A stretch of 59,261 bases of DNA, filler included, from Dugesia japonica (taxonomy: Eukaryota), in the NCBI GenBank assembly GCA_001938525.1. It is 4 parts of 4 records of this genome, joined end to end, with 100 filler letters (N's around TTAATTAATTAA, not from the genome) between each part and the next. Parts side by side here need not be neighbours in the genome. Positions count along the whole stretch, not along the records: positions 17,309 to 34,317 come from MQRL01597828.1; 3 more parts are not named here. The stretch is one strand, 5' to 3'. Positions 12,401-47,479 of the stretch are shown here, piece by piece. Under the pieces are notes generated by a model. It was not told the DNA's origin. It worked only from the letters and a program-made list of their open reading frames with translations, and did no database searches. Made by a program: the position numbers and the translations under genes. Each line of letters opens with the position of its first letter. Position 1 is the first letter of the stretch.

Positions 12401-15067
12401 AAATTATCAGGAAATGAAGTGAATAATATACGACCAAAAATTTAAAAGTCATAAAAGTTTTTGAAAATAATTATTGGTTTTGTTCCAAAAATTGTTACAA
12501 ATTTCTNNNNNNNNNNNNNNNNNNNNNNNNNNNNNNNNNNNNNNNNNNNNNNNNNNNNNNNNNNNNNNNNNNNNNNNNNNNNNNNNNNNNNNAATTATTA
12601 AAACAAAGACGATCCAGAAATATTGTATGCTGAAAATGAATAAAAACTGTTATTTAGAAAGAATATTTTGAAATTTCAATAGAAATAATAATTATTATTT
12701 GCGGTTTTCTGACAATTTCTTCAAATATGTCCTTCATTAAAGCATATTACATGTGGCATCATTTGATATTGTCGTCATTTCGGAATATCCAACACATTAT
12801 TATTATTATCATTATTCTTTATATCGTAGCATTTATCGTTCCTCGCATTAGCTGGTTTAATATTTTTATTTTGATATTATCTAAATTTCTCCACACATCT
12901 GGCCACTTCTGAAAATATAAATTGCTTTATTTGTGCAACTTATTATTCCATTATAGAATAATTTAAACCATATATATTATTGTGTCCATCATTTTAATAT
13001 TATTTTCAATTTCTTTCAGATCTATATGCTTATTTCATTTTTATTTCTTTTTGAATTTTGTTGTCATCAACTCAATGAATGAAAAAAATACTTTGTTAGT
13101 TCATTTTTGTCCAATTTGTTTCGTAATAATTTCACCGCAGTAGTCGATTCGTTATTTCTATAAAATCGTTAATAAGTAAACTTTGTTTCTGAAATGCCTT
13201 CCTTAATGTTTCTTCAAATCCAGTTACACTGATTTCTGCCGCTTTATAAATTGGGATGAATTCTTTATTGATTATTGTTTTTATGATTAATCCTCTTGAA
13301 GTTTCTTCGATATAAAAGTGTCAAAATATATACTACAATCACTAAATAAAGTTTCTAAATCATTATAGAATCAAGTAACCGCTCGCGAGCACCTGTGGGG
13401 TCAGTGGGAGGTCACCAATGATCTGCTCAACTGTCTTGTGTTGTTTTAATAAACGTTATAATTTTTTTTTGTGAATATAATAAATTGACTGGATAGAGTA
13501 AATTCTAATTTACTGCATGCAACCAATAGAAAATAGTGCATACGAGCTCAATTTAAATCTTGTTTAAGAGCTTGATGGCTTAATTGAGTTATATAAACTG
13601 ATACAATACAATGAATTATGTAATACTATACAACGAATTTATATAATGAAATAAACTTCCGTTCGACACATGCATCTTTTTAGAGCATGATTAATTCTCA
13701 ACGGAGTTGCACGGAATACTCATGACTAAAGTTTATTAAAGTCTGATGGAGCTATGGTATACTTCTAGATACAATAATTATCACTTCCTCATTAATAAAA
13801 TTAATGTTGAGATAGAACACATTACATGTATCTAGTTTATCAAGCATAATCCAACAATGGATGACACAAGATCAATGAAGTAGGCCGAAAGTCGAAAATG
13901 AGGAACCAAAAAACAAGATTCAATGATTAGAATAAAATTAATTAAGAAATAATATTTTCTTGTAATCAAAACAGAATATAAGGAGTAAATATTATTGTTA
14001 CGGTGGTTTAATGTGTGTTAGATACATGAACATAATTCAAATTCAATTTCATTCATCTATCAAATAGTTGGTACACCAGTCAATTGAAACGTGCTGCTCA
14101 CGGTAAGTGTCTTAATATCAACTCATATATGCTGATGTCTCTTCTTACGACAAGATCCCACGAACCTGCTTTTAATAAGTTTTTCATTATTGATTTTTAA
14201 AATTTTTTTGTAATCACTATGCATATTATAATAGTATTTGATGGTTCATTAAATTAAAAGCTTCTGTTTATATTTTTTATTTAGTTGTTAAAATAAAAAA
14301 AACAGTAGTAAAAATCAAGAATTGAATAAATAAAATATAAAATATATAAAAACATAAAACAATATTTCGGTCGAAGCATTTAGTTTAATGTAATATCAGA
14401 TACGATCAATGGTTAAGTCCAACAATTTTTCTTGTAATAAATGTAATTGTAATTGATGTAATTTAATAAAATCCAGATTTATCAATATTGTTTTTATTTG
14501 TAGTTTATTTTAATAATTTAGATAGGATTATTTAACATAAAATACAAAGTATTTATTGATGCCCTACGTTGAATTAAATTATTTACGTATAAATGGTTGC
14601 TACTTATTTGAAATAAACTTTAGTAATTGTGGATTTTATAAGTCTCCGTTTTTGCTTCACATATTGAATACCGTGTGCAACAAATTTGTTCATATCTTAA
14701 AAAAAATAGTTTTGCAACAAAAATCTTTTTGACTTCAAAATAATATTAATAAAAAAATCTTCACTTCGTAATTCCATGTGAAACATGAACTTTCCTACCA
14801 TATATGAATAAATTTCAATTATACAATTACATTCAATTGAAATATTTAAAAAAGGATAGTTAAATGAAATTGTTTCATTAAATACAATAGTGTTTCTGTA
14901 TATAAACAAAAATTTCTGTGGTAAATTGCTAGAAATTTGTGAATCACCCATTCTAAACCAACGTTTTTTTTCAAAATTGCATTCGAACTTTATGGTAAAT
15001 TTTTCCAATTCATTCTGACAGGTATAAGTGTTATTAAACAATTTTTTATAAACCACTAAAGGATCAA
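117..15067 (-). CDS. Multi-exon gene (partial) encoding at least 6 tandem ~100-aa divergent Ig-like extracellular domains; 5' and 3' exons not identified
   Basis: Six minus-strand exons (14765-15067, 11592-11876, 10999-11310, 7507-7821, 5964-6284, 117-422) have AG/GT boundaries, are phase 1-1, are 285-321 nt long (all multiples of 3) and lack stops. Most share a C-x(11-12)-[WF]-x-C ... C-x-C pattern. Confidence 0.7.
2430..2690 (-). pseudogene. Non-LTR retrotransposon reverse transcriptase fragment
   Basis: Minus strand reads HVVFLDIEDAFGNLQLKLITGILEKH, matching the RT LDxxxAF motif. Degenerate. Confidence 0.6.
2770..3020 (+). pseudogene. Ty3/gypsy RT N-terminal fragment
   Basis: GCIHLTKHQIITSDKPINIK, then a frameshifted GQKRICSYFRxMN matching GxxRxCxDxRxLN. 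Confidence 0.55.
3273..4192 (-). pseudogene. LTR-retrotransposon gag remnant with Zn knuckles
   Basis: CYACVSEHYLRRNC followed by the canonical CCHC knuckle CSRCNRRGHCAKNC. Upstream Lys/Glu-rich capsid-like sequence is broken by stops and frameshifts. Confidence 0.75.
4245..4950. repeat. Degenerate repeat array with palindromic AGGTGTGAAATTTCACACTT core; related to 40120-40540
   Basis: Core recurs at about 4288, 4561 and 4810. The tail CTTTCACAyCCTAAmCTTTACAATTTTT occurs at about 4903 and 40510. Confidence 0.65.
5200..5890. repeat. Degenerate ~31-bp minisatellite (TATTATATGACTATATTGGGTTTATTGTGTG)
   Basis: Consecutive 31-nt units are clear at about 5630-5725, with decayed copies on either side. 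Confidence 0.7.
5964..6284 (-). CDS. Ig-like domain exon 5 (xVPKLELYP...NIQC...NWRCQF...NIKCGC...IPKS)
   Basis: Acceptor cattag, donor gtttgt, 321 nt, phase 1-1, open. Confidence 0.7.
6994..7380 (+). pseudogene. hAT-superfamily transposase fragment (intronic)
   Basis: RLSIDEWCS (first catalytic D, DxW), VTSDG (second D) and HQLC (decayed CxxH motif). Confidence 0.7.
7507..7821 (-). CDS. Ig-like domain exon 4 (xKIFLKPKK...KIECY...KWYCNL...NITCWC...LPMT)
   Basis: Acceptor ttcag, donor gtgcgt, 315 nt, phase 1-1, open (contains one N). Confidence 0.7.
8232..8408. mobile_element. hAT (Charlie-like) MITE
   Basis: Termini CAGTGGTC...GACCACTG. The 8-bp flanks ATTTAATT and ACTTAATT match at 7/8 positions (TSD). 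Confidence 0.75.
8435..8537. mobile_element. Short Tc1/mariner (Tc2/pogo-like) MITE remnant
   Basis: TA-CCGGATTTTC...ATAAGACC start with inverted GGTCTTATTTT/AAAATAAGACC sub-terminal motifs. Confidence 0.4.
8820..10227 (+). pseudogene. Ty3/gypsy pol C-terminal half (RNase H, integrase, GPY/F), decayed
   Basis: TDHKAITF (RNase H), HKSLCH plus C (IN Zn domain), HIDFCG, IHTDRGKSFES, SNGIIERQFRT, RYEGPAII. Many frameshifts. Confidence 0.85.
10228..10522 (+). repeat. Polypurine tract and probable 3' LTR of the gypsy element
   Basis: AAAAGGGAGGAA lies right after pol and is followed by TG at 10240. The 3' end of the LTR is approximate. Confidence 0.6.
10999..11310 (-). CDS. Ig-like domain exon 3 (xFMQIIITPNP...NITC...SWSCDF...NIQCTC...LAKL)
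   Basis: Acceptor tttag, donor gtatgt, 312 nt, phase 1-1, open. Confidence 0.72.
11592..11876 (-). CDS. Ig-like domain exon 2 (xLPLLQITSPQ...KYFKWDCEFC...LYCSYIL...KIPM)
   Basis: Acceptor ttctag, donor gtatgt, 285 nt, phase 1-1, open. Confidence 0.7.
14765..15067 (-). CDS. Ig-like domain exon 1 (xDPLVVYKKLFNNTYTCQ...KFECNF...IECNCII...ELR)
   Basis: Acceptor tttag at 15068-15072. Phase-1 donor gtgaag is weaker. 303 nt, open. Confidence 0.6.
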
Positions 15068-17208
15068 CTAAATATGAATATATTATAATGAAAACAAATC
15101 ACATAAATTAATAACCCTAGTGTAATAATTATTAAAAAAAAAGCAGAACATTTAAAATAAAGTAATTTATTTTTTGTTAAGTCCAACAATTATTCTCGCA
15201 AATATTGTATAAATCAATATTTAAGATTTAAATTTTGTAAATTCAATTCATTTAATTTGCTGTACATAGAGTTTCTGTTTTCCCGAACTTTTTATATTCT
15301 CGAGCTTCGAGAAATCGAGAAATAAATATGTTTTCTCCAGAAATCTCGGGAAATAGGAAATTTTTAATATAAGTGAAAGTTTTTTAATTGTTGGTAATTT
15401 GTTTATATTAAAACTCAATTCGTCTACATTTTGTAAATTATATAGGTCATAGTTAAAATCTTTAAATATATATAATAACTTAACGGGTTGTAATTTAAAT
15501 AAATTATAATATATTTTAAATTATAGTATTAAAGTATATTAATAGTATTATAGTAATTATAGTATCATAGTATATTAATATTATAATATATTATTTATAT
15601 TATATATTATTATACTTTACACTTCCCAAGAATTCTAACAAAGCCGTTAAAAAAACAATTTGCTATCGATTTCATTTTGCAGATTTCGATCGTGTGTATT
15701 ATTAATATTAAAATATATTTTTTATTCAACAATTAGCCATTAAAACTTAAATGTTTTACAGTCGATAAGAAGCGTGTTTAAGTGATTGTGATTGTTTTTT
15801 GTAGCAATAAAATTAAATATTTAAGTCGCTCAATTAAAAAGTGATAAAATTTACATGATGGTTAGAAAGATTTTTTAATATTTCTTAACATATCTCTTCC
15901 TCGTATTTTAAAATAAGCAATTTAAACTTTATGAAGTTACCGGCGAGTGAGCACCACTAAGTGATGATTAAATAACAATATAAAACGAAACTTTTACTAT
16001 CTACGAGTCAGCACCGAACGATTCAACGTGAAAAATCACTAAAAATTTGAAGTGGAATACTCACAACAAAACGTCAAAAAGTGACGATAAAGAAAATGAA
16101 AAATCAGAAAAATAATATCTTAAAAATCATTTTTTGATATATTCTTGTAAAATCATAAAAGATATTATCAAGTTCGAAAACTAAGAAGAAAGATTATTTT
16201 TATTTGCATTTTAATGTGATAGACACCTGTTGATAATGTAAAAATGTCAAAGATGATGATTACTGATACGATGATCGTTGCTCGTTAGCTGTGCAAGTAG
16301 TAATAGTTGTCATCTGTCAAATATTCTAGTGAAAAACTTTTGTTTTATTATTAAACTGTATTTTTTTAAACATTTTATAATTTTTTTTTCAATTTATAAA
16401 AGTTTATTTTAATTATATTCATTATAAGCTACATTAAATTTATACAATTAAAAATTTTTTTATTATTAAATATTATAATTTTTTATTTTTTTACAATTCT
16501 TTATTTCTTTAAGTTTTATTTTTTGTAATTTCATTTAAACAAAAACTTCCATCAAATTATTTTTGTTTTTGATAATATTTCAAATACTATCAAAAACAAA
16601 ACCAATTTGATCAAAGCTTTTATTTTAATGAAATATAAAAAACGATCAATGCTTACGTCCAACAATTATTCTCGCAATAATTGTAATGGTAAAAATTTAT
16701 GTTTTTATTTTGTTTTAATTAATTTTTTATAAACGTATAATGCTTTATTTATGTTGTAATAATTATAATTATAAATTTAAAATTAATTTATAATAATAAT
16801 TAATAATAATTATAAAATTTAAGAATTATCATTTTTTTTAATAAAAAACTTTTTTTATTATATTTTGTTTAAATAAATTTAATTAATTTATTTTCTATTA
16901 ATTTCAATTACTATAATGATTATAAACAACATTGATTTTAGGTTTATTCAATTTGATCAAAATTTATTCATATTTTCTGTGAAGTTCAGAAATGCAGCCT
17001 GTTCTTAATGTTTTCCATGCTATAAGATGTTTTTCTGTTGAAATATTATGATTGTTTTGAAAATGTTTGAGGACTTCAGTTTCTTCAAACAATTTTCAAT
17101 GCTTTTAAAAAACACAGTTTCATAATTGTTAGGATCCAGCTCTCTATAGAAAATATAAGTAGGTAGATGGTAGCGCACAAGCACAATTTATTTTTCTTAC
17201 CACCCCCC

Positions 17209-17308
17209 NNNNNNNNNNNNNNNNNNNNNNNNNNNNNNNNNNNNNNNNNNNNTTAATTAATTAANNNNNNNNNNNNNNNNNNNNNNNNNNNNNNNNNNNN
17301 NNNNNNNN
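17209..17308. other. Artificial scaffold-joining spacer (44 N + TTAATTAATTAA + 44 N)
   Basis: Exactly 100 nt, has stops in all six frames, and is identical to the spacers at 34318 and 47380. Confidence 0.95.
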
Positions 17309-18945
17309 TTCAATAAAGAAACTCCAGTTAATTAAGCAACAAATCTACTACACCAAACGCTTTTCTAGCCAACCTAGTTTTTCAATTTTATTGTAAGGTT
17401 ATAATGCTACGTAATTTGAAGAGACAAAATGTCATTTTCTCACACATGTTAGCTAGCATATGCAATTGAGTTGGAAAAATTTTGTTTTAGATCATGCCTA
17501 TTGCTGCAAAAATAGAACATAATCCCATTCTTTATACTTAGATTGACACACATTCACTTTTAAAGTTTTTTAAATCTTATTTTATTGTATTGATTACGAA
17601 ACAGGTTTTATTGGCCAGTATTTAAAAAATTTCCTTCTTATTTAGCAACAGTAACTGACGATAGTCATATATTTGTCCGAAATATGTCTTACAAAAAAAG
17701 TTTTATAAAAATTAAGTTTTTTCATTTTATACATACATATATATATAAATATATACATACTAAATAATATATTAAATTTAGTTTTACTCTTTTGTATGGG
17801 AAATGTCAATTTTGTTATAATTTAGACACTTTCTGAGTAAATGTCATAATGTCTTGATTAAAATTAATTGAAAATATTTTTTACTAAAATAGTAATGTGT
17901 ATTGTTAAAAGAATAAAAATTATAACTTTTGAATATCAATATCTGTAAAAAGGCATAACCTATTATATTTAAAATTGAAATGAATACTGTTATAAATCCC
18001 AAGGAGTTAATATAATAACTACTAAGATATTTGGAACTGTTTTAAATGTTAATGTTTGTTTTTGTCAAATAATAGAATTTATATAAAAATAAACAAAATG
18101 AAGTAATATATAAATAAATTAAAATATAATTCATACTCCGATTGTTTTCTTAAAAATACAAAATTTACATTTGCTATTTATTGATTTCTTTTTTCTATTA
18201 TTTTTCTAAAAATATGAATTTAATTAATTTATTACCACGAAAATGTTATCAGTTTTATGAAAATTCCGGATTAAACAAAACCAGGGAAACATGTAAAGAA
18301 AAAAAAGAAAATGAAATTACATAAAAAAAGTAGAAAAACAGGAAACTGTTCCCGAATGTAGAAAAAAAGAGTTTGTTTAATAATTTCAAGAAAAATGGTG
18401 TAAAAATTTCAAATAACAGCAATCTATCAAACACGAAGTAAATAAATAATAATAAATTAATAAAATCCAGTGGAATTCTTGTTTCTTCATGACCAGTGAA
18501 AATAATTATGATAGGAGTAAAAAGATATTAATTGTTGTTAATTAACTGCATTTTCTGATAATTTAAGGTTATTTGTGAGGAGAAACCTATGTAAAGGAAG
18601 TGGTTTAATAATTTAATTAATAAACTGATCAGACTTTGTTTTTTTCTATAAGGTTCCCATGAAACTATCAATTAGCAAAAAAACATGATCAGTTATTTGA
18701 TGAAAGTTCATACAAATTTTAAAATTCAAGCTTTTGAATATTTAGACTAGGTTTTAATATTATTTTGGGTGAATAGAAAGTAAACAGTGAAAAGATTTAT
18801 GATGGTCCATACTACAAATAGTATGTTTGTTAGGTAAGTCTAAGAGTTCAAGGTTGAATTTAAAAAACTGAAAAATTTATTAAAAAATGAAAGATAAAAA
18901 TTTTAATTTGTTTTTAATGAACAAATTAAGCAGCCTTAAAAATGT

Positions 18946-18989: not shown

Positions 18990-20039
18990 TATTATGTATA
19001 ACCTCCAATTATAATTTATTTGCCAAATAAGAACTATTAATTTGAGACATTTTTTATTCACTATTAACAAAGATAAGTAATTAAAAAATTATTCGGCAAA
19101 TAGAACTAATTGTATAATTATAGTTATTGTACTTCATTTCTATTGATTGCAATTTCGAATTATTATTTATTTTATGATACTTATCAATTTGAAATTAAAC
19201 TTTAATTTTCAAAATTTTTCATAAAAAATATTTAAATACATGAATTATTTTTCAATAATTTTCAATTAATTATAATTTTAAATTTTATAAATCTTATTAT
19301 TTTCAAATAATTTTTTTGTATTTAAAACTTTTAATAATTCTATTAATGTTTAGTTTTTATCTAAAGATTTTATCCTAAAAATTTATCTTCTATTATAAAA
19401 TTTATTTAAAAAATAAACTTTTGTTTCATGTTTAAAATTCAAATTATTTTAAATTACATTTTTTAAAATTCTCAAACAAATCAAAATCTAAATCTGAAAC
19501 AATTTGTGTATCAAATTAATCTTTTCTTAAAGTGTTCTTTTAAAAATTTTCAATTGCACATTTTATAAATTCGTTTTTAACAACAAATAATTTTTTTATT
19601 TCTAAAAATTATTTAAAAAGCAAAGATCAAAGTTGCTGTTCTTTTACTTTCAATATTTCAGCAAAGCCTTCTATAGGAACTATTTTTCAGGAAATTATTA
19701 TTACAAACTTTGACATAAAGACAGATTTTAAATTAATCTGAGAAAAATCAATTTTCCTTGAATTTTAATTGTAATATAAAATTAAATGAACATTTTCTCG
19801 GTTGATTGCTGCAAAAAATAATAATGAAAAATCGATTTTATAAATTTTTTCAAATGTTTTGACATAAAAACAAATTTAAAATGATTTTTTAAAAAATAAT
19901 TTAAGTTTTAAAACAATTTAANNNNNNNNNNNNNNNNNNNNNNNNNNNNNNNNNNNNNNNNNNNNNNNNNNCTTATAGTAATGAGTTTAATAAATAGATC
20001 TAATTTCTTGGACATATTAGTAAATCCGTGATGAATATT

Positions 20040-21720
20040 TTCAATCACACATCCAAATACTGGCATATGCTGATTATATTGTACTCATTGCAACTAATAT
20101 TACTGATCTCAATAGCATTATCGAAATTACTGTGCAAACTGCTGGTCTGATTGGTTTTGAATTTCGGCCAGAAAAGTGTGCATACATGAATCTGCCGTCG
20201 AATGACACAAACAGTCAAATCTCAATATGTAACCAAAAGATGAAAAAACGCTTGACAGATGATTTCTACCAATATCTTGGAGTGCCAATCGGTGATGGTA
20301 ATGACCAAAGTCCATATAAAATTATTGAAAATTTAATAGATGATGCAAAAAAGCTTGCAAACTCTGATCTTTGTGGATGGCAGAAACTCAAAGCCTATAA
20401 ATTATTTCTTCACTCAAGACTCATATTTGCTTTTAGAACTAGTGAAATAAAAACCACAGCTCTTAGTGCCTCGGAAAATAACAACACAAGCAAATTTAGG
20501 ACTGAACTCAGACGTAGGTTGAATCTTCCTAGTAAGTCTGAAATCTTTTACTTCTACAATTCAACAGAAAATGGAGGTGCTGCATGGTTTGACCTTCTTG
20601 ATGAGTACCACACACAATCCATTATTCAGGATTTTCGACTTTTCACTTCAAAATGTGAGCTAAAAAAGCAAATAAATCTAGATTCTTTGTGCTATATTGT
20701 CAGTCCTCGTTTTATGCAAAGACATCCAACAATTAAAGAGAGTCTTGAATGGATAAACGGAAAGCCATTTATATCTAATGAGAAATCAAAGAAAACTAAC
20801 TTTCAACGTCCACGAACCTCAGTCGAATACTTCAAAAAATTACATGAAATTCAAATATCCTTTGAAGTACAAAAGGATGAAGTCGTTATACACATTTCTT
20901 CAAATATTCGTGGCACATATATTATAACTTCAAACTTCCGCAACAAAGTTGCTATGATTATTCACAAAGCAATATATGACTCTTAGGCAGAAAAAGTAAA
21001 TAAAAGTAAGATTAACAATTTTGTATTTTAAGCAACTCAGAGGAGTCCGACATTCAATAAAATGATTTATAATGGCGCACTTACTGAACATCTAGGCAAC
21101 TTATTCACTGTCTTGAACAAATAGCTTAGCAATAGCTGCAAAGCCATACATCACGAATGAAAACGGAAAAAAATGTCGCAGGTGTAAAGCTGCTGATGAA
21201 ACACTGATGCATGTGTTGTATTTGATTACATTTACAATCTCTTACTAACAGCAGTACGTCATAATGATTGCCTTGATATAATTGTGAAGAACATCAAATC
21301 TCCAGAATATATTATTGAGGTCAATACTACCAGTAAATATATGAAAGGATCAATGGAAAGAATTGACTTACAAATAACCAATGCAGAGAAAAAGACTATA
21401 TACTTGGTAGACGTGAAATGTCCATTTGATTCTGAAACACTCTTAAGAAATGTTGACATTAAAAATCTCAATAAATACGATAATCTTAAAGTTAAAATAA
21501 AAGCAGCCAAACCCGAGTACAGAGTTGAATTGTGAACATTTATCTTTGGATTACTTGGTTAAATACCACCAAAAACCTCAAAAACAATTGAAGAAATTGG
21601 TATAAATAAAAGAATTATCAATAAACTACTTAAAGAATGTTTAATGAGTAACATAGCAAATTCAGCCAGGATTCGGGACTTCCACACAAAAAGAGAATAC
21701 ATAAATTTTGAAAAATAATG
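20040..21720 (+). mobile_element. Non-LTR retrotransposon (RT + CCHC + restriction-like endonuclease; NeSL/R2/R4-type), 5'-truncated and decayed
   Basis: LAYADY (decayed YADD), GFEFRPEKC, YQYLGVPIG, CRRCKAADETLMHVL, RHN, RIDL...IYLVDVKCPF...KNLNKYDNL (REL motif), FGLLG. In-frame stops present. Confidence 0.9.
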
Positions 21721-22225: not shown

Positions 22226-23889
22226 TATGATTGTCGACTTATTTTACACTTTGTCTTTTATTTATAACTTTTTATCTATAAGGTTTGGTGATTTTTAACA
22301 ATATTTTTCTTACTCAAGTTAAAATTCTCTATCGAATAGATAGTTTGATGTTTAAATTCAAGTTACTCTTTCCAAAATTCATAATTTCCTCCCGAAATGA
22401 AGTACGTGTTTTTTCTATATAACGTTTTATCTATAAAGTTTGATGATTTAAGGTTTACATATTTGGAATTAGTGAAAGATTCTTTATCGGATAGATACCG
22501 TTATTGCGAATTTTGAGATACTTTTCAATTTTCGACAAAAGTTGCCAAATCCAAAAGGACAGATGAATATCTTCATTAGGAAGCATTTTTCCCGAGACGA
22601 TATTTTAACTTTTTACAGTCACGTTTTTTCCTGAGTAAAATAAAATCAAATTTGAAACCATACGAGTTATGTATGCAAAGAAAATTGAGCACCAAAATTC
22701 AAAATTTTAGATTTTTCATCACAAAACCCTAAATATTTCATCCCGGATAAACTTTGGCGATTTTAAGTTTATATATTTGGAATAAGCAAAAATTTGTCTA
22801 TCTAATAGATATGATTATTTAATGTAAAAATGAGAAATAAATATTTCGAAAAATTTTTATTTGTGAATAATAATCAAATTTTGCATCGATTGATGTAAAA
22901 ATCTCAACAAAACATTTTTTCAAAAATTTTCGAAATTTCAGTTTTTCTCCCAGATTCCCATAAAAAATTGATTTAAAAATTTTAAAAATCTGAAAATTTA
23001 AACAAAAATGACCTAATTTCACAAATTTACCACAAAAGTTTAAAATAATTTTTAAAAACTTCAAAAATTTAAACAAATTCGACTTTTTCCATGAATTTTC
23101 GAAAAACTTCATCTCCAACTGACCAATCTCGAGGAAATAATTGTCTAAATCTTCCAAAAATTTGCCCAACTGACCAACCCCGAGGAAATAATTGCCTAAA
23201 GTCATACAAAAATCAACCTTCTCGAAGAATTTCCGTAGCAAATCATACAAAAATTTAAAAATTTTTTTTGTAAGACATGTTTGTTAGACAGGTACTGTTG
23301 TTAAATAAGAATGAAATTGTTTATATACTGGCCAATAAAACCTGTTTCGTAATCAATCGAATAAAATGAGATTAAAATAAATTTAAAAGTGAATGTTTAA
23401 AAATGAAGTATAAACAATTTGATTATGTCACCCAATTCTTAAGGCCTAATATGCAATTCTTTAAAACTAATTACCAAAACCGCTGTTCAAAACTGTAAAC
23501 TCATCAATTCTTATTTTGATTTTTCTATTTTTGCAGCAATAGGCATAATTTAAAACCAAATTTTTTAGACTCAATTGCATATGCTCGCTAACATGTGTGA
23601 GAAAATGACGTTTTGTCTCTTCAAATTACGTAGCATTATAACCTTACAATTATATTGAAAAACTAGGCTAGCTAGAAAAGCGTTTAGTGTAGTAGATTTG
23701 TTGCTTAATTAACTGGAGTTTCTTTATTGAAGTGATAATTAATCTAAATGTAAAATCATCAAAATATTATATTATCATTTTAAAGACTTAAATCTTTTCA
23801 AGAATGAAAGTTTTATAGTTAACTTTTCTTGATTATTTTTAAAGTTTTTTTCTTAATTATTATTTGATGTTGAGCATCGTTTGTTAAGA

Positions 23890-24290: not shown

Positions 24291-24446
24291 GCTGAAGAAA
24301 ACTTGATTTCTATATTACTTTATTTTGAATTGATCGTTAAGTTTAAATTTTATATCATCAAATTATATTCAAATTTTATTTTTTACACAAAACCAAATTA
24401 AAACAATTTAATTTAATTAATTGTTACAATTATATGGAAGTGTATT

Positions 24447-24612
24447 AGTAATGGGGAAATGAGGATTTTAACGCAAGGGGGTATACTCCTATAAAGCATA
24501 AGGTATAAACCCATAAATAATTAATTTTTATAAATTTGTTAAGCGATTGTTAATACTAGTGCATATTTTGGATAAACATCCCTTGCGTTAAAATCGTCAT
24601 TTCCCCATTACT
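24447..24612. mobile_element. 166-bp element with 33-bp inverted termini (AGTAATGGGGAAATGAsGATTTTAACGCAAGGG); MITE or left-terminal structure of Polinton A
   Basis: Near-perfect inverted repeats at 24447-24479 and 24580-24612, with 5'-AGT...ACT-3' ends. No clear TSD. Confidence 0.7.
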
Positions 24613-24681
24613 CGTTATATGTTTATTTAATTTTATTAATTGTATTATGAGTTTTTTCTCGATAAATTTTATCTTAGTAAA

Positions 24682-24894
24682 ATGGAAGAGTTAGTAGATG
24701 AAGTTAAACATAATCCTAAATTTATGGTAGAATTAAAAGATAATTATGTTCAAGTATTAAATTCCTCTGCTAAAGAACAAAAATTGATATTAAAAGATGT
24801 TTACCCTAAATTTATAATATTTGAAGAAGTTATAAATATGGTTGGAAATCCAATTTATGATTTAGCTATACTTTATGATTTAGCTATACTTTAA
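24682..24894 (+). CDS. Polinton A hypothetical protein (decayed; 18-bp tandem duplication YDLAIL-YDLAIL)
   Basis: ATG-initiated ORF at the start of the viral gene block. No recognisable motif. Confidence 0.4.
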   Translation: MEELVDEVKHNPKFMVELKDNYVQVLNSSAKEQKLILKDVYPKFIIFEEVINMVGNPIYDLAILYDLAIL

Positions 24895-25267
24895 AAGAAA
24901 AATTAGCAAAAACAGAAGAATACGATGAAGTTTAAATAGAAAAATTAACTTCTTAAAGAAAATTGAAAATAATAATCATAAAAACAAAGTAATAATAAAT
25001 GTAGTTAGAAAATCAAATAAAATTACAAAACAATCACTTCAATAAAATCACTTTAGAAAATGACAGTGGAATTAGATACAAAAGATATAATTGATTATGT
25101 AATAAATGTTAATAATTAAAATAAAAAATGAGGAAATCAAAAAGATATAATAATATACTTAGTATTTATTATTTGTATTTTTATTTGTATAATTCCATAT
25201 TTATATATTCCTTTTATAATTTCTTATATAATTCCTTATATGAAATCTTATATTATTACAACGAAAA

Positions 25268-25957
25268 ATGACTACAGAAAGTAAAAATGATTTGTGTGAA
25301 AAAGCTGTAGAGTATATTAATATGGGTAATACCTTTGATTCAAAAATGTTAAATAAATCTCAAAAGATTTGTATGGCAGTAAAATATCAAGAATTAAGTT
25401 TTAAAAATCCAAATTTAAAGGATTCAACTATAGCTAAAGAAATGGGGATATATGTTCAAACATTAAATAAAACTTCTAGAGAATTTAATTTAAAACCTGA
25501 GAGAAAAAGATATCATAGAGTTAAATATTCTTTTGATGATAAATCACAAAAATATATAAAAGATAATTTTGGTGATTATATTTTTAATGTTAAAACTAAG
25601 TCTTTTGAAATTAATGAAACTCCCACAAAAAAAAGTTCAACTGATAAAAGAAATAATTTAGCATTATCAAAAGGACATAGGGATCTATCAAAATATTTAC
25701 ATTCTTCTAATATAAATAAATCATTATCAACAAGTTCTATTAGTAAAAAATTAAAAAGAACATCTAATGAAGTTGGAGGAGTAATTGGTGATAATGATGT
25801 ACATAATGAAATTAATAAAGCATTTACTTTTAAAACAAAATCATATCCATTTGTTAACAAAATCATAGCCACTTGTTTACAAAATAATACCATAACATTA
25901 TTTTTTTATTCAATTTCATTATTATTCTTTACCAAACGAGTGAAGAAAATAATATAA
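25268..25957 (+). CDS. Polinton A helix-turn-helix DNA-binding protein
   Basis: NPNLKDSTIAKEMGIYVQTLNKTSRE fits an HTH pattern (IAxxxGhxxxTL). Confidence 0.6.
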   Translation: MTTESKNDLCEKAVEYINMGNTFDSKMLNKSQKICMAVKYQELSFKNPNLKDSTIAKEMGIYVQTLNKTSREFNLKPERKRYHRVKYSFDDKSQKYIKDNFGDYIFNVKTKSFEINETPTKKSSTDKRNNLALSKGHRDLSKYLHSSNINKSLSTSSISKKLKRTSNEVGGVIGDNDVHNEINKAFTFKTKSYPFVNKIIATCLQNNTITLFFYSISLLFFTKRVKKII

Positions 25958-26072
25958 AAATATAAATCTCTTAAATTAAAAATCTTTTTCTTTATTTTTG
26001 CTTGTATATTTTAAGATTATCCATCTTCAAACTAGGTAAAAAATTTATACAACTAAATTGTCTTTACTTAAA

Positions 26073-29000
26073 ATGACTAGTAATCAGTTGATTTGTCCTA
26101 ATAAACTTTGTAAAAAAGTTTTAGAAAAAATCAGGGTTAACAGGTCATATAAGATCAAGATGTTGTTATTTAAACAGAGCAATATTTACTTGTTCAAAAT
26201 GTTTAAATACTTTTAGATCTATGAGGGGATTAACAGAACATTTGAATTCTACTAATTGTGGAAATTCAGAGAAGGTTCCGTTGTTTTGTGAAATTTGTAA
26301 TAAAAAGTTTACAAGACAAAATCATGCTAAAGCACATTTTAATTCTAATTAACATAAAGAAATGGTTAATAAAATATTATTTGATCAACTTCCTGGAGAA
26401 GAAGCAATTGACTTTGATACAGAAATTAGAGATATTTTCAGAATTTACAAAGATTATGAAATTGAATATTTTAGAGAAAGTAAAGTTGAATTAACTAGAA
26501 ATTTAGAATATCCAGAGGGCCCCCATTTAGAAAGACCTATAAAAATGATAATTGAATTTCAATCTGAAATCTTAGAAATTATTATAAAGTATTTTAATTA
26601 TGGAAAAAAGATTATTGTTAGAATGAGTGTTAATTGTAATTATAACAAAGAAATAAATGGAGAAAATGTTGAAAGAGTTTTTAATTCATATTCTCAAAAT
26701 AAACAATTTACAATTTTAAGTGAAATTAATGAAGGTGTTAAGGATATTTTAAATCAACTTCAAAGATTTATTGAAGATGAAGATAGAAACGAATCAGGGT
26801 GGAATTTAAATTATATTGTTGATTATAAAATAGAACTTTCTAAATATCAATCTTTAGCTGGTTCTTCATATCAGAAATTACCTTTTTCTAAATCAGGAGT
26901 AATTAATATTNNNNNNNNNNNNNNNNNNNNNNNNNNNNNNNNNNNNNNNNNNNNNNNNNNNNNNNNNNNNNNNNNNNNNNNNNNNNNNNNNNNNNNNNNN
27001 NNNNNNNNNNNNNNNNNNNNNNNNNNNNNNNNNNNNNNNNNNNNNNNNNNNNNNNNNNNNNNNNNNNNNNNNNNNNNNNNNNNNAAAATTAAATGATTTT
27101 AAAATAAATGTATTTACTGTAACTAATGAAAAAATAATTGAACCTTTATATATTAATCATTATGAAACTAAACCCAAACAGGAAGAAAATAAATTTAATC
27201 TATTAGTGTATAAAAATCCTTTTATTCTATGTAGAGATTTACAANNNNNNNNNNNNNNNNNNNNNNNNNNNNNNNNNNNNNNNNNNNNNNNNNNNNNNNN
27301 NNNNNNNNNNNNNNNNNNNNNNNNNNNNNNNNNNNNNNNNNNNNNNNNNNNNNNNNNNNNNNNNNNNNNNNNNNNNNNNNNNNNNNNNNNNNNNNNNNNN
27401 NNNNNNNNNNNNNNNNNNNNNNNNNNNNNNNNNNNNNNNNNNNNNNNNNNNNNNNNNNNNNNNNNNNNNNNNNNNNNNNNNNNNNNNNNNNNNNNNNNNN
27501 NNNNNNNNNTAAGTAAATATCAGCATTTAATTGAAAATGAATACAAAGAATTTACAGGAGAAAGTATTCATCAAGATTTCTTTTAATTTTTAAATGAATT
27601 AAATGATAAATTAAAAGATATAAAAGAAAATAAATTAATAGAAACTTATACTGAAACTAATCCCAACGGGCCCCATCATCCTAAATTTGAGGAAACAACT
27701 AAATGTAGATATTGTGATAAAGAGATTAAAACAGGGGAACAAGTACTCGATTATGATCATTTTAACGGGGAATTTAGAGGTTATTCTCATAGTAAATGTA
27801 ATTTACAAGACAAATCGATTAAAGGTTTATTTATTCCTTTTTATTTTCACAATGCTTCAGGTTTTGACAATCATTTATTTTTCAAAGAATTAATTAGTAA
27901 ATATCCAGGAAAAGTTAGAAGAATAATTCCACATTCAGATGAAGTTTACATTTCTTTTGAATTTGGAGCTTCGCGACCTGGAAATCCTAAAGAACCAACA
28001 ATAAGACTTTTAGACTCAGCTAGAATGTGCACTCAAACTTCAATTGAGAAAATGGGAGAAACGTTAAATAAATCAGGAAAATATAATCATTTAAGAACAT
28101 TTAATCTAAAACCAAAGAAAATATCATTTCCTTATGAATATGTAAAAGGAGAACATATCAATCAAGTAATTGAATTATTAAAAAGAAACCATAAACCATG
28201 AAAAAAAGATTTTTTCAATATATTAAGACAAAAGAAAATAACTGATCGAGAATATAGTGAATTTGAATAGATTTTAGTAATTTTAATAATTTATGGGATT
28301 ACATGTTATATTATATGAAACTAGATGTAATTATTTTAGCAGATTACTTTAAAAACTTTAGAGAAACTTGTTTAAATAATTATCAAATAGATCCAAGTTA
28401 TTGTTAATCAGCTCCATGATTAACTTGGAACGCTGGTATGAAATTTACCCAAGTTAAATTAAAATATGCTCAGAAAGAAACATATTATAAATTTATTAAA
28501 ATTGAAAGAGGTGGTTATTCTGGTGTTTGTGGTGAGAGATAAATCTTTTCAAATAATCAAAAATCAAATCCTAGATTTGAAAGACCAAGACAATTAAACA
28601 AAGCACAAGTTGGAGATGTATTATTTTCATTTATTAAAAATAAAACTGTACCAATAAATTGGAAAGAAGAAACATTTTTAAAATATCTAGATGAGAATTC
28701 TTTGTATGCTAGTTGCATGACAAAGCCTTTACCAACAGGAGAAATCTATGATTGTAAAGACTTGGAATATATTAAATCAACTGATAAAATAAATTATGTT
28801 TATAAAGTTGATTTAGAATATCCTCAAGAAATTCATGAGAAAACTAAATACTTTCCTTTAGCTCCTGAACCTTTAAATATTACAAAAGAAATGTTAGCAC
28901 CTTATCAATTATGTTTTCTCCGCGGAGCTCAAGCCGAAGGCGCAAACAAGAAATTATCCAAGAAAAATATAAAATTAACACTGAATCAATTTGATAAACA

Positions 29001-29992
29001 AAATTATATTGTATTAGGATCAACATTAGATTTATATTTAAAACTAGGAATGAAAATTAAGAAAATACATACAAAATATAAAATGACTACAAAACCTTGG
29101 TTAAAAGATTACATTCAATTTAATATTGATAAAAGAAACGAAGTTAAAAGAAATAAAGATGTTTTTGGAGATGTTTTTTTTAAGTTATTAAATAATGCTT
29201 TATATGGGAAAACTTTAGAAAATATAAGAAATAGGTGTAATGTTGAAATTGTAGATAATCACAAAGATTATCAAAATTTTACAATTAAAATTAATTATAA
29301 ATCTATTAAAATATTTACAGGAGAATTTAATCCTTCCAAAGCTCCTTCTAGTCGCAAGGTTTCCGAAGCTAAAACAGCAGCAGTTCATCTTTAAAAAACT
29401 AAATTAAAATATGATAAATTGCCATATATTGGTTTTACTATTTTAGAATATGCTAAAGAAGTTATTTACGATTTTATTTATAATCAGATGGATAAAGAAA
29501 TTCCTAATAAATATAAAATTCATTACGCCAACACTGATAGTATCTTTGTTGAAATAAAAGGTCACGAAAATCTAAACAAAGTAGAAAGTCTATTAGGAAA
29601 TAGTTTATTTCAAATGAAAGATGAAAAACCAAATAATGAAATAGTTAAATGTAATTTTATAAAAGCTAAAAGTTATTATTCAAGACGATAAAACTCTGGA
29701 AACTAAACATAAAGGTGTTTCTAAAGTAAATAAAATAGGGATGGAAGATTATGATAAAGTCTTGGAAAACCCTAAAGAAATAATTTATGGAACTATTTAT
29801 GGTTTAAAATCAAGGAAACATGAAATTGAATTAACTGAACAAAATAAAATAGCTTTAACTGGTTATGATGATAAAAAATTAATCGAGGATAATGGAATAA
29901 GAACTTGGCCACATGGAAATAAATACAAATGTGAAAATTGTAATCAATGGCATTTAAGATTTGATAAATTATCTGGTAAAATAAATAGTTAA
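26073..29992 (+). pseudogene. Protein-primed family B DNA polymerase (group-2 type) with N-terminal Zn fingers and EndoVII/HNH insertion
   Basis: Three Zn-finger-like motifs, ESGW and GSSYQKLP, CRYC...DYDHFNGEFRGYSHSKCNL, ExoII FHNASGFDNHLF, ExoIII YMKLDV, PolA YLDENSLYASCM, PolB KLLNNALYGKT, PolC YANTDS (D to N), KHKGV, ALTGYDDKK. Stops and frameshifts present. Confidence 0.95.
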
Positions 29993-30054
29993 AGTGGCTC
30001 CTGCAGGAGCCAGTTACTAAAATCAATTTAAAGACGGCGTCCGCGGACGCCACT
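29993..30054. terminator. Two GC-rich perfect palindromes between convergent stop codons
   Basis: TGGCTCCTGCAGGAGCCA (29995-30012) lies right after the pPolB TAA. GGCGTCCGCGGACGCC (30036-30051) lies right after the minus-strand TAG at 30053-30055. Terminator role is inferred. Confidence 0.5.
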
Positions 30055-30712
30055 ATTTATTTAATTTATTTATAACCTTTTGTTGTTCATTAATTTGATT
30101 TTCAAGTTTCTTTAATAAATCATTTTCAATTTTATCTTCTTTTTTATTATTTGAAATTAAATCTTTAACTTCTTTTATCATATTCTTGCTTATTGATATT
30201 TCTTCATTAGTTAAAATGTCATCACTAAGAGCTTTTTGATGAAATTAAAATAACTTATTTTTAACAGTTTCTAATTCAGGAATTAAATTTTTATACTTTT
30301 TCTTTTATGATTTTATTAAAGATGAATTCAAAGTACCAATAACTGGAATACAAGNNNNNNNNNNNNNNNNNNNNNNNNNNNNNNNNNNNNNNNNNNNNNN
30401 NNNNNNNNNNNNNNNNNNNNNNNNNNNNNNNNNNNNNNNNNNNNNNNNNNNNNNNNNNNNNNNNNNNNNNNNNNNNNNNNNNNNNNNNNNNNNNNNNNNN
30501 NNNNNNNNNNNNNNNNNNNNNNNNNNNNNNNNNNNNNNNNNNNNNNNNNNNNNNNNNNNNNNNNNNNNNNNNNNNNNNNNNNNNNNNNNNNNNNNNNNNN
30601 NNNNNNNNNNNNNNNNNNNNNNNNNNNNNNNNNNNNNNNNNNNNNNNNNNNNNNNNTATTTTTCTAAATTAGGATATAAATTATCACCTTCACCTTCGTT
30701 CTCATCTACCAT
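30053..30712 (-). pseudogene. Polinton A helical protein resembling the adintovirus 'gasderminX'-type ORF
   Basis: N-terminal LYPNL and C-terminal KALSDDILTNEE. Middle hidden by Ns; frameshift present. Family assignment is from recall only. Confidence 0.45.
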
Positions 30713-30736
30713 TTTATTTTAATGATAATTTAGAGA

Positions 30737-32335
30737 TTATTTTGAAATTTTAATATTATTAATATAAATATTTGCTGGTAAAATTAAAGTAATTCTTTCC
30801 ATTGGTTTATGTTTTTCTAAAAATTGATTAATATTTATTCCAAGATTAAATTCATCTTTTTTAGTAAAATTAAATTCGTGTTCTTCTAATTTATTATTAA
30901 TTGTTATATAGATTTAAAAATAAGAAATATCACAATAACCATTAAATAAAAAATTTACTTGTTCTAATGGTTTTTCAAAATAAAAATAAAGTTCTAATGG
31001 TTCTTCAAGAAAATAATATTGATAAGGTTTTTCTTGGGAAACACTTTTTAATATTCCTTTTCTTTTTATTTTAAATGGAGTTAAACCAGAATGATAAGGT
31101 AATTCATTCTTTTTTATTAAAGTAGTTAATCTAAAAAGTATTTTTGGGTTTATTATTTTTATTTTATCAGAGTAAGGAAAATAATTATCAATTATATGTT
31201 TAATCTTGTTTTAAAACTCTTGTCTATAAAGTTTATTTTGTGGTGCGCTCTTTTTAATTTTCATAGTATAATCATTAATATCATTAATACGATCAATATG
31301 AAGATCATTTTTTATTTTATTAAATTCTTCTTCTAAAGAAATTAAATGATTATTTAATAATTCAATTCTCTGTGATAGTTTTTCTAATTCTAAATCACTT
31401 TTAATAAATTTCTCAGGTGAACAAGTACTTGATAAATTATTAATTTCTTGTTTAAGATTTTTTACTTCTCTAAGAATATCATTTAATTTAGTTTCAAGCC
31501 TTGTTTTGGCACTCCAAACATTATCTCTATAATTAATTACATTATTTTTTAATTCATTTATTTTAACAAGTAAATCAGCTTTATTTTTAATCCAAGTTTT
31601 ATTATTTTCTAAAATTTGTTGAATATAAATATATTGAGTATTTAACTGATTTGATAAAATAGAAACTTGTTTTTCTAAATTATTAATAATTCCATTAAAG
31701 TATTTTAAATTAATAGCATCAAGTTCATTTTTAGGTTTATTAATAATTTTTAAAGAAGCAATTGAATCACCACTTTCATTAACAAATCTTTTATCATTAG
31801 TTAATGATTCTAATTTTAATTTAGCAGAAACATNNNNNNNNNNNNNNNNNNNNNNNNNNNNNNNNNNNNNNNNNNNNNNNNNNTAAATTATTAATTTCTT
31901 GTTTAAGATTTTTTACTTCTCTAAGAATATCATTTAATTTAGTTTCAACCCTTGTTTGAGCACTCCAAACATTATCTCTATAATTAATTACAGTAGTTTT
32001 TAATTCATTTATTTTAGCAAATAAATCAGNTTTANTTTTAATCCAAGTTTTATTATTTTCTAAAAGTTGTTGAATATAAATATATTGAGTATTTAACTGA
32101 TTTGATAAAATAGAAACTTGTTTTTCTAAATTATCAATAATAGAATTAAAATATTTTAATAGCATTAAGTTCATTTTTAGGTTCATTAATAATTTTTAAA
32201 GAAGTAATTGAATCTCCACTTTCATTAACAAAATCTTTTATCATTAGTTAATGATTCTAATTTTAATTTAGCAGAAACATGTTTTAATACTTCTGTATTA
32301 TTTTGACTATTTAAAGTTTCTCCAAATTTATTCAT
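30737..32335 (-). pseudogene. Polinton A fibre-like protein (neck motif, coiled-coil stalk, C-terminal head)
   Basis: MNKFG start, RFVNESGDS...PKNELDAINLKYF (fibre/adhesin neck-like PxxxxDAxNxxY), long heptad region. A ~400-bp segment appears twice around an N gap. Confidence 0.55.
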
Positions 32336-32339
32336 TTAT

Positions 32340-32747
32340 TTAAAGTAATTCTTTAAAGGTAATATATAATTCATTAATAATTTCATCAAAAGATCGGGGC
32401 CCTTTGGGATATTTAAGTGAATTTAAAAAATATAAACATAATAAACCACAAATACTTGTATCAAAAGGTTGAACTTGAATTTTATTATAAATACTTACAT
32501 GTTTTTCTATTTCTTTAAATGGTTTTAAACCATAAGAATCAAAATAATAACCTTGGTAAAAAGCAACCCANTGAGTTCCTTTTTGATTTGTATTTTGATA
32601 ATTAATTATTAGTGGCTCCTGCAGGAGCCACTTTGAGATTTCATCCTTCATTAATATTTCCAGTTCTAAATTAAAAAAATCAGCTATAGAATACAAATCA
32701 AAATTAGTTTTAGTATTTATTCCAAAAGTTTTAAGAAAGTCTAGGAT
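32340..32747 (-). CDS. Adenain-like cysteine maturation protease (Polinton A)
   Basis: GT(H)WVAF, YYFDSYG and QVQPFDTSICGLLC supply the catalytic H/D/Q/C. The 5' end lies in an N gap. Confidence 0.9.
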   Translation of the reverse strand: MLDFLKTFGINTKTNFDLYSIADFFNLELEILMKDEISKWLLQEPLIINYQNTNQKGTXWVAFYQGYYFDSYGLKPFKEIEKHVSIYNKIQVQPFDTSICGLLCLYFLNSLKYPKGPRSFDEIINELYITFKELL

Positions 32748-32797
32748 NNNNNNNNNNNNNNNNNNNNNNNNNNNNNNNNNNNNNNNNNNNNNNNNNN

Positions 32798-33451
32798 TAT
32801 GAACTAATAAAGAAATAGTTTCATTATCAAAATCTATAGTATTATTATTTTCATCTATAATATTAAATAATCAATACATTTTGTATTTAATCTTGAGTAA
32901 ATTGGAGTAGAAGGTCTTTTTATAATTTTAAAACCAAAACTAACAGTATTTACTGGAAAAGAACATAATAAATTCATTGGTAAGGACTGACCGTTGGCAT
33001 TAATATAATTACCCTTGATTAAGTTACAAGTTATGTTAATCATATTTATATTTAAAATATCAACTTTATTTTCTGAATAATATTTTCCTTTTGAATAAGT
33101 TTTAAGTAAAAAACCTAAAATAGTATGANNNNNNNNNNNNNNNNNNNNNNNNNNNNNNNNNNNNNNNNNNNNNNNNNNNNNNNNNNNNNNNNNNNNNNNN
33201 NNNNNNNNNNNNNNNNNNNNNNNNNNNNNNNNNNNNNNNNNNNNNNNNNNNNNNNNATAAGCACCTGGTTCTATAGTTACTAATTTATCATTATAATAAA
33301 AAGTATTATTTTTATTAGTAATATTAAAAATAATATTATAACAACTAAAAGATAATAAAGCCATTTCATAGTTTGAGTCTAATTCTATTGGAAATTTTAA
33401 ATCAACTTTTAAATCAGATTCTTTACCAGCAACTAAAAATTGATGAGACAT
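32798..33451 (-). CDS. Minor capsid (penton-like) protein, Polinton A
   Basis: PIELDSNYEMALL...NITNKNNTFYY...IEPGAY, INITCNLIKGNY, and a frameshifted C-terminal DENNNTIDFDNETISL. Confidence 0.8.
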
Positions 33452-33456
33452 TTTAT

Positions 33457-34221
33457 CTATAAAAAATACTTGTTTTTATATACATTAAATTTTTCTCTGG
33501 TTATTAGTTTTTGCTTTAATAATTCTTTACAAACAGATTTAATTTCTTCTTCTAAATTATTATGTCCAGCTTTTACAGCTGAATTTAATAATGTTAATCT
33601 TTCAAATAAAGAAACTGGGTTTAATCCATTACCTATAATAGGAGTTTCTTTTATAGAAGTTTCTTTTTCAGAAGTTTCACTAATAGATGAAGTCTTTTTA
33701 CCAATTAAAAATTTATAATATTTATTATTGTGATGAAATGTAATATTAAATTTGTTTANNNNNNNNNNNNNNNNNNNNNNNNNNNNNNNNNNNNNNNNNN
33801 NNNNNNNNNNNNNNNNNNNNNNNNNNNNNNNNNNNNNNNNNNNNNNNNNNNNNNNNNNNNNNNNNNNNNNNNNNNNNNNNNNNNNNNNNNNNNNNNNNNN
33901 NNNNNNNNNNNGATAAATTATTTTTTGAAAGTTTTTAACATTAATAACTTCTGTTAAAAATATTGGTATAACTGCTGGTGTTTTTAAAAAATCAATATTA
34001 CAATTAGTATGTGAATAAAATGGAATTCTTTTCTCAAAAAGGTTAGAAGATTTATCCAAGTTTTCAATTGCTTTAATAGTAAGAAGTTGTTGAATAGTTA
34101 AATCAGCTTGTAAATTTCTTGATTCAATTACTTCTGTAGTAAATAAATTACCATAATNATCTCGTGCTTTAATTAATTCTTTTAATTGTTTTATTCTTTC
34201 TAATGTTTGTTCAGTATCCAT
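33457..34221 (-). CDS. Conserved Polinton ORF of unknown function
   Basis: C-terminal PVSLFERLTLLNSAVKAGHNNLEEEIKSVCKEL resembles the LxxRLxLLxxxxxAGN motif of group-2 Polintons (from recall). It is preceded by IIGNG. Confidence 0.6.
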   Translation of the reverse strand: MDTEQTLERIKQLKELIKARDXYGNLFTTEVIESRNLQADLTIQQLLTIKAIENLDKSSNLFEKRIPFYSHTNCNIDFLKTPAVIPIFLTEVINVKNFQKIIYXXXXXXXXXXXXXXXXXXXXXXXXXXXXXXXXXXXXXXXXXXXXXXXXXXXXNKFNITFHHNNKYYKFLIGKKTSSISETSEKETSIKETPIIGNGLNPVSLFERLTLLNSAVKAGHNNLEEEIKSVCKELLKQKLITREKFNVYKNKYFL

Positions 34222-34222
34222 T

Positions 34223-34317
34223 TTAAAAAGAAATTACATAGGTTTTTAAATATAATCCATTTCCTTTTATTTTAACTTTAATTCCATTTTTAAAGTTTTT
34301 AGTAATCATTATTAATT
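34223..34317 (-). CDS. 3' end of a Polinton core-like protein (IKGNGLYLK)
   Basis: GxGLYL motif. Truncated by the spacer. Confidence 0.4.
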
Positions 34318-34417
34318 NNNNNNNNNNNNNNNNNNNNNNNNNNNNNNNNNNNNNNNNNNNNTTAATTAATTAANNNNNNNNNNNNNNNNNNNNNNNNNNN
34401 NNNNNNNNNNNNNNNNN
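34318..34417. other. Artificial scaffold-joining spacer
   Basis: 44 N + TTAATTAATTAA + 44 N. Confidence 0.95.
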
Positions 34418-47379: not shown

Positions 47380-47479
47380 NNNNNNNNNNNNNNNNNNNNN
47401 NNNNNNNNNNNNNNNNNNNNNNNTTAATTAATTAANNNNNNNNNNNNNNNNNNNNNNNNNNNNNNNNNNNNNNNNNNNN
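47380..47479. other. Artificial scaffold-joining spacer
   Basis: 44 N + TTAATTAATTAA + 44 N. Confidence 0.95.

Follow-up and report, generated by a model that had tools for sequence, protein, structure and literature searches.

A stretch of 59,261 nt from the Dugesia japonica genome assembly GCA_001938525.1 ("the window", filler included) contains a Polinton/Maverick-like element, here called element A, that is very AT-rich and carries a series of short GC-rich islets. These islets are probably non-autonomous micro-elements that were copied within a Polinton lineage during its own replication, and that were filtered by selection into protein loops and the gaps behind stop codons. Two or three small families would be involved, i.e. 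modules of about 15 nt and palindromes of 22 bp. All motifs of an initial annotation of this DNA were found where it had placed them, and the following features were distinguished (positions refer to the window):

24600-34300: element A, 8575 non-N bases, 22% GC.
26362..29992, plus strand: pPolB gene, encoding a protein-primed family B DNA polymerase (Pfam, tblastn, Foldseek).
26510..26526, plus strand: class 1 motif, read PEGPH, the most diverged copy (4 of 17 letters).
27660..27676, plus strand: class 1 motif, read PNGPH.
27964..27997, plus strand: 10-codon insertion, read GASRP and then NPKEP; TGGA repeats flank its 11-nt class 2 core (27968-27978).
27984-27996, plus strand: probable decayed class 1 copy, read NPKEP, 3 mismatches in 13.
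28918..28947, plus strand: insertion of about 10 codons, read LRGAQAEGAN, consisting of a class 2 core and a GCC-GAA-GGC mini-hairpin.
29326..29373, plus strand: 16-codon (48-nt) insertion with PSKAPSSRKVSE, GC-rich, no clear palindrome, edges approximate.
29993..30014, plus strand: class 3 palindrome, 22 bp, its first base directly after the pPolB stop, with AATAAA at 29980.
30033..30054, minus strand: second class 3 palindrome, its inner 16 bp (30036-30051) perfect, absent from the initial annotation.
32340..32747, minus strand: gene for an adenain-type (clan CE) cysteine protease, its 5′ part covered by an N gap.
32394..32410, minus strand: class 1 motif in the protease gene, read PKGP.
32611..32632, minus strand: perfect 22-bp class 3 palindrome in the protease gene, read KWLLQEPL.
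32988..33000, minus strand: possible decayed class 1 copy (weak), read NANGQ, in the gene upstream of the protease.

Hairpins with GC-rich stems, divided into a strong and a weak class, were counted and compared with 100 dinucleotide shuffles. Element A has four strong hairpins versus 0.02 expected and nine weak ones versus 1.6 expected, and neither value was reached by any of the 100 shuffles. For comparison, the second Polinton-like element of the window (element B) has one strong and nine weak hairpins (0.3 and 7.2 expected), the left flank one and ten (0.2 and 6.6 expected), and the right flank also one and ten (0.2 and 4.9 expected), the latter weak-class value being mildly high (p ~0.03). 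Among 23 related viral loci with a GC content of 30% or less, 21 have zero or one strong hairpin, one has two, and one has four. The shuffles and this comparison show that the GC islets are real and specific to element A; the initial annotation had likewise seen them in element A and none in element B, and the enrichment of strong hairpins is indeed limited to the former. The view that all islets are palindromes is not supported. Only the 22-bp class folds better than shuffled sequences, with z values of −5.4 (32611-32632) and −4.2 (29993-30014). The values for the three class 1 motifs, which are palindromic only in cores of 6-9 bases, are +1.1, +0.4, and +0.6, and those for the pPolB islets at 27964, 28918, and 29326 are +0.8, +0.1, and +0.5.

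Class 3 comprises the 22-bp palindromes with ends of the AGTGG...CCACT type at 29993, 30033, and 32611. As had been annotated, the palindrome within the protease gene recurs almost exactly behind pPolB, with matches at 21 of 22 positions. A comparison of islet pairs revealed 22 identical letters common to the intergenic and the protease copy, which are 2.6 kb apart. Judged from this identity, the 22-mer was copied between a position behind a stop codon and the protease gene.

Class 1 consists of a 13-nt GC core beside AT dinucleotides, and all three copies are read P-x-G-P on the coding strand (PEGP, PNGP, and PKGP), as had been claimed. The copies are pairwise alike, with shuffle p values of 0.003-0.010 that are uncorrected, 36 pairs having been compared. 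When up to three mismatches are allowed, element A contains five matches to the core (two of which are the defining copies), all of them on the coding strand, versus 0.13 in shuffles; the outside control, i.e. the 48.6 kb of non-N sequence of the window beyond element A, contains four. The weak candidate at 32988..33000 also has 3 mismatches in 13, shares the codon phase, and lies in a region that has four more residues than the only homologue, L056. Dispersed copies at unrelated sites are present at three places for class 3 and at three to five places for class 1. Class 2 is loosely defined by the cores at 27968 and 28918.

The likeness between islets bears on the alternative that no unit moves, and that each islet arose separately by fold-back synthesis or as repair filler in labile loops, with a similar mutational origin and the tolerance of Pro/Gly turns accounting for any resemblance. 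The islets are indeed short and mostly non-folding, the corresponding loops of homologues are variable, and the shared frame and strand of class 1 would be consistent with selection on the peptide. In contrast, a template to copy from is needed both for 22 identical letters at sites 2.6 kb apart and for the three to five class 1 copies, which use GC-ending codons that element A otherwise avoids. We regard separate origins as distinctly unlikely. At fourfold sites, G or C is found in 18 of 32 codons within islets versus 27 of 446 outside, a contrast that is partly circular because the islets had been chosen for GC.

The element A family is large and present in many copies in this eukaryotic genome: from each of four public DNA runs of one organism, 9317-15286 contigs aligned on 24300-31400 (7.1 kb), most of them 80-95% alike. 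In all four runs one contig skips 29998-30053, and the 20 letters that replace this segment in the one run shown begin with another perfect 12-bp palindrome, TGACCGCGGTCA. Since the runs may represent one strain, these contigs count as one alternative copy, not four. A comparison of four palindrome versions showed that the inner six pairs are intact in all of them, with three different sequences, and that the variants differ by symmetric pairs only. Turnover of the palindrome behind pPolB from copy to copy leaves its symmetry intact.

The location of the two intergenic palindromes suggests the main rival explanation. The double palindrome 29993-30054 could be a 3′-end or termination signal of two converging units that is conserved in shape, in which case the protease copy would be accidental and the coding islets would be unrelated. 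At its end, the second palindrome shares bases with the TAG stop (30055-30053) of the minus-strand gene that converges on pPolB, and minus-strand AATAAA motifs are found just upstream of this stop at 30070 and 30061. Both palindromes are exactly at stop codons, and on each strand an AATAAA is no more than about 15 bases away. The changes are symmetric only, another copy also keeps a palindrome at the junction, and none of six other gene ends of element A has such a GC hairpin. Polyadenylation defined by hairpins with non-conserved sequences is described for Mimiviridae (PMC4402537). Of 15 related viral loci, two have a strong hairpin after pPolB, which favours a signal, but both are AT-rich and the other 13 lack one, which speaks against it. 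The near-identical copy within an open gene, where a terminator should be harmful, also argues against a signal, as does the canonical AATAAA that is already present, and the class 1 repeats would be left unexplained. Taken as the full explanation, a 3′-end signal seems unlikely to us. The micro-element and 3′-end readings can both be partly true, and the placement of the intergenic palindromes exactly at two converging stop codons, which the initial annotation did not note, would be consistent with a functional 3′-end role. Such a terminator would be the first 3′-end signal for Polinton transcripts.

Both the 22-bp palindromes and the 62-bp double unit 29993-30054 start with AGT and end with ACT, similar to Maverick termini, which are given as AGT//ACT repeats in PMC8097293. 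It is conceivable, albeit very unlikely, that they are the smallest Polinton parasites, which the Polinton's own terminal protein, polymerase, or integrase would recognise as well as copy. In such a parasite, the inner sequence could be free to change while the symmetry stays.

At least three islets, all within pPolB, are lineage-specific in-frame insertions. The islets and their odd peptides (LRGAQAEGA, GASRP, and PSKAPSSRKVSE) are as had been described. Clean gaps open in the alignment with P0323, the closest polymerase relative found (41-45%): ten residues each at GASRP and LRGAQAEGA, and 16 residues at PSKAPSSRKVSE. Insert lengths were counted over 300 homologues, and the subset that spans the site differs from site to site. 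At GASRP, the 10-residue gap is also found versus P0001, P0255, and P0160. The window protein is 9 or 10 residues longer than 55 of 171 homologues and 8 residues shorter than 87 of 171, members of a clade that has a longer loop of its own. The extra class 1 match at 27984 lies within this insertion, which thereby looks like two 15-nt modules. At LRGAQAEGAN, the gap is 10 residues versus P0323 and P0152, about 10-11 versus P0151, and 9 versus P0001, and the length of the loop is highly variable across 294 homologues. The 48-nt insertion adds 16 residues versus 189 and 15 residues versus 32, i.e. in total 221 of 258 spanning homologues. It contains an internal 10-nt direct repeat (at 29334 and 29361), and in the structural model it is predicted to form a disordered loop between two strands, with predicted local distance difference test values (pLDDT) <50 at residues 266-273. 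Its derivation from a GASRP module that was copied in reverse and then decayed was rejected, because this idea failed the shuffle test (not among the pairs with p <0.08). PNGP at 27660 is probably a 5-codon insertion, the window protein having four to seven more residues than 83 of the 123 homologues that span this site, where the alignment is weak. The PEGP site at 26510 is spanned by only eight homologues, which are poorly aligned.

At position 28920, the window has a C, whereas every aligned contig has a T (five, three, and three contigs from three of the runs; the fourth has no contig here). Therefore, only the window copy, or its assembly, has the perfect 10-bp palindrome CTCCGCGGAG, which is not a trait of the family, and with a T the class 2 cores at 27968 and 28918 become more alike. 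The low contig depth at 28920 was not taken as a sign of absence, because the depth is equally low at other listed places. A letter found in no contig and a gappy draft scaffold (2117 N) could point to an assembly artefact, or to linker or vector sequences, the cores resembling restriction-site hexamers and octamers. We give this explanation hardly any credence: 28920 is covered by contigs of three runs, the junction of a related copy holds a palindrome of its own, and the inserts are in frame, differ from one another, and show decay.

The initial annotation had regarded the islets as insertions, which holds for the three pPolB peptides that are gapped in homologues and not for the palindrome in the protease gene, while PKGP adds at most three residues. 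In 11 of 12 homologues, the loop corresponding to KWLLQEPL is of equal length or 1-3 residues longer, in P0301 it is nine residues longer, and there is no gap versus L056. The absence of a length gain implies that the palindrome took the place of variable loop sequence or that a deletion compensated for it. In the variable loop with PKGP, the protease has three more residues than 7 of the 12 homologues and L056, equals two, is shorter than two, and one is truncated. In the protease models, KWLLQEPL is predicted at a helix end and the adjoining loop, and PKGP in a loop between two helices. A location in surface loops had been proposed for a check, and all four modelled inserts are at predicted loops or helix ends; the low model confidence adds little, because low values are to be expected at positions that no aligned homologue covers. 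The closely related protease pairs P0301/P0304, P0307/P0309, and P0312/P0306 differ by loop inserts of 8-9 residues, and the insert of P0301 is situated in the same loop as KWLLQEPL.

The units were probably gained by a Polinton/Maverick lineage while it was still active. The reading frames continue through the inserts although the window pPolB has six premature stops within its two aligned segments, which suggests that the gains predate the death of the window copy. Protein-primed strand-displacement replication exposes single strands. During this process, local copying of the units could have occurred by template switching or short gene conversion, either of which would account for a replacement without length gain and for symmetric changes (quasi-palindrome correction). 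Template switching is known to perfect quasi-palindromes (PMC3820800). Purifying selection would then retain only those copies that are placed behind stop codons or in frame in surface loops. The DNA-level mobility that had been proposed is thus supported with regard to origin and copying, by the 22-mer behind a stop and in the protease gene, the peptide gaps, the predicted loops, and the enrichment in element A.

Several observations weigh against such a spread of micro-elements. The copies are few, with two or three good ones per class. Class 1, class 2, and the 48-nt insert fold no better than shuffles, and the latter two have no significant likeness to other islets. No consistent target-site duplication was found, AT, TGGA, and AA being seen by eye at single sites, and the analysis yielded no mobilising enzyme. 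The protease palindrome adds no length versus any of the 12 homologues, and protease loops are labile anyway, because close relatives carry short loop indels of their own. The turnover at the junction is represented by one contig per run, from runs that possibly stem from one strain, and no presence/absence difference of a coding insert was observed among the copies, a contig joint over 28856-28963 enclosing unknown letters. Lastly, the positions of both intergenic palindromes at stop codons behind AATAAA are those that a 3′-end signal would take, and a strong hairpin follows pPolB in 2 of 15 related viral loci.

By analogy, the GC micro-inserts would be relatives in kind, and not members, of known systems, as they are nuclear, shorter, and share no sequence with them. 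The yeast mitochondrial GC42 clusters have 42 nt, a putative AG target duplication, and presence/absence differences among strains (PMC4478555, Wu and Hao 2015). Like yeast GC clusters, the units of element A are short, GC-rich, partly palindromic, and presumably non-autonomous, lie in DNA with a very high AT content, and seem to merge into compound units; a hairpin constraint, in the case of the 22-bp class, and an unsettled mechanism are shared as well. In contrast to GC42 with its many copies, the units of element A have about 15-48 nt, are few per class, lack a consistent duplication, and reside in a nuclear virus-like host. The mitochondrial hairpin elements of sponges and fungi (PMC2800124) are also GC-rich, occur singly or in tandem, and are found in intergenic regions as well as in protein genes without a frameshift, and some Allomyces elements lack flanking duplications (same source). 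However, they are organellar, have up to 84 bp, and combine conserved stems with variable loops, whereas the stems of element A change symmetrically. Rickettsia palindromic elements (PMC10969869) likewise consist of palindromic DNA that enters unrelated genes in frame and is translated along with them. Yet they have about 150 bp and a conserved peptide, and a single genome contains 44 insertions, while those of element A are 5-10 times shorter and have no sequence link to them. The hairpin-rule signals of Mimiviridae (PMC4402537) are similar in that palindromes are placed at gene 3′ ends and their shape, not their sequence, is conserved. They differ in needing the viral cytoplasmic 3′-end machinery, whereas element A has AATAAA, a single hairpin junction, and one copy within a gene.

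A full-text literature search, which mostly left subscription papers, Repbase notes, and supplements outside its scope, retrieved no report of such inserts in Polintons/Mavericks, and they are not described in the accessible portions of PMC5799277 and PMC8547959. What is new is the nuclear Polinton setting for an already known kind of micro-palindromic element. The movement of GC clusters and micro-palindromes is still unsettled in mitochondria and in Rickettsia. A Polinton family with a high copy number in one genome offers a ready series for the timing of gains, losses, and symmetric changes, and pPolB is the single obvious suspect enzyme in this setting. If the micro-element reading is correct, such elements add residues to a viral polymerase and rewrite a protease loop.

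Element A combines two Polinton/Maverick hallmarks, i.e. a protein-primed DNA polymerase B and an adenain-type protease. For pPolB, the Pfam domain DNA_pol_B_2 was found (E 5e-12), and the top Foldseek matches are phi29 polymerase (E 9e-8). The gene is broken in the window copy, with premature stops, a frame change near the 3′ end, and two N gaps; the six stops in the aligned segments indicate that this copy is dead. For the protease, the match to Pfam Peptidase_C5 is weak (E 0.037), 12 homologues are 48-54% identical, and the Foldseek matches are CE-clan proteases including adenovirus protease, every E value being >0.001. No integrase, packaging ATPase, or major capsid protein was seen in element A up to the gap at 34318, which hides the remainder of the element, and Pfam and PHROGs gave no name to its other open reading frames. 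A pair of long terminal repeats was not found among the 25 longest inverted repeats, the right end being lost at the gap at 34318. In each of the gaps 17209-17308, 34318-34417, and 47380-47479, an identical filler of 12 letters interrupts the run of N at its centre. Because element A stops at the second of these gaps, the sequence beyond it is not necessarily contiguous with the element. A 276-bp direct repeat (31433-31708 and 31884-32159, 95%) lies across an N gap in a long minus-strand gene, and is either an internal gene duplication or an assembly overlap.

The setting of the window is of a nuclear and not an organellar type, with a retroelement remnant and two Polinton-like elements. The remnant (20024-21532) encodes a reverse transcriptase (Pfam RVT_1, E 4e-5), lies between 209-bp inverted arms (17309-17517 and 23523-23731), and presumably belongs to a retroelement of the type without long terminal repeats. 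To the left of the first open reading frames of element A, a 166-bp stretch (24447-24613) with 33-bp inverted arms starts with AGT and ends with ACT. It is single within the window, its contig depth is far below that inside element A, and it could be a miniature inverted-repeat transposable element or a piece of the left end of element A. The observed/expected ratio of CpG is 0.38 in element A, i.e. CpG is depleted, versus 0.91-0.97 in element B and the flanks, and 15 of the 40 CpG of element A are found within 196 islet bases.

Database searches gave no close homologues, the best identities being 42-43% and 54%, and the relatives that lack the inserts span 35-54% identity. None of 323 proteins contained any of five peptide patterns specific to the inserts, namely P-x-G-P-[HR], GAS[RH]P, LLQEP, and two peptides obtained by reading through the second intergenic palindrome, and class 1 motifs were absent from 1.18 Mb of related loci. 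A direct scan of IMG/VR with a piece of pPolB gave no match, and a metagenome scan gave one locus, which is devoid of GC hairpins. Searches of solved-structure sequences, ESM Atlas, and PHROGs, and a scan for bacterial promoters and terminators, were not informative. The window motifs match IMG/VR at chance level only, and no repeat family shared with giant viruses or virophages was found there. The 28918 pattern matched two loci, the second palindrome core 28 (all with 61-73% GC), class 1 four (40-60% GC), and the first palindrome core ten, five of which represent one AT-rich phage-like contig type. With the degenerate class 3 pattern, one fully symmetric sequence was found among the 120 matches listed. 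The five phage-like contigs (L001, L002, L003, L006, and L008; 33-34% GC) have a perfect palindrome of 26 bp built on the same core of 16 bp (1501-1516 in L002), which is read LLQEP near the start of a gene. We take their genes to resemble T4-type head genes, and their palindrome probably is independent of that of the window. A GC-rich hairpin repeat occurs twice in L065 (4442 and 6032), a viral locus of AT-rich composition with a related protease, and also in L063, and is possibly a further case of the same phenomenon.

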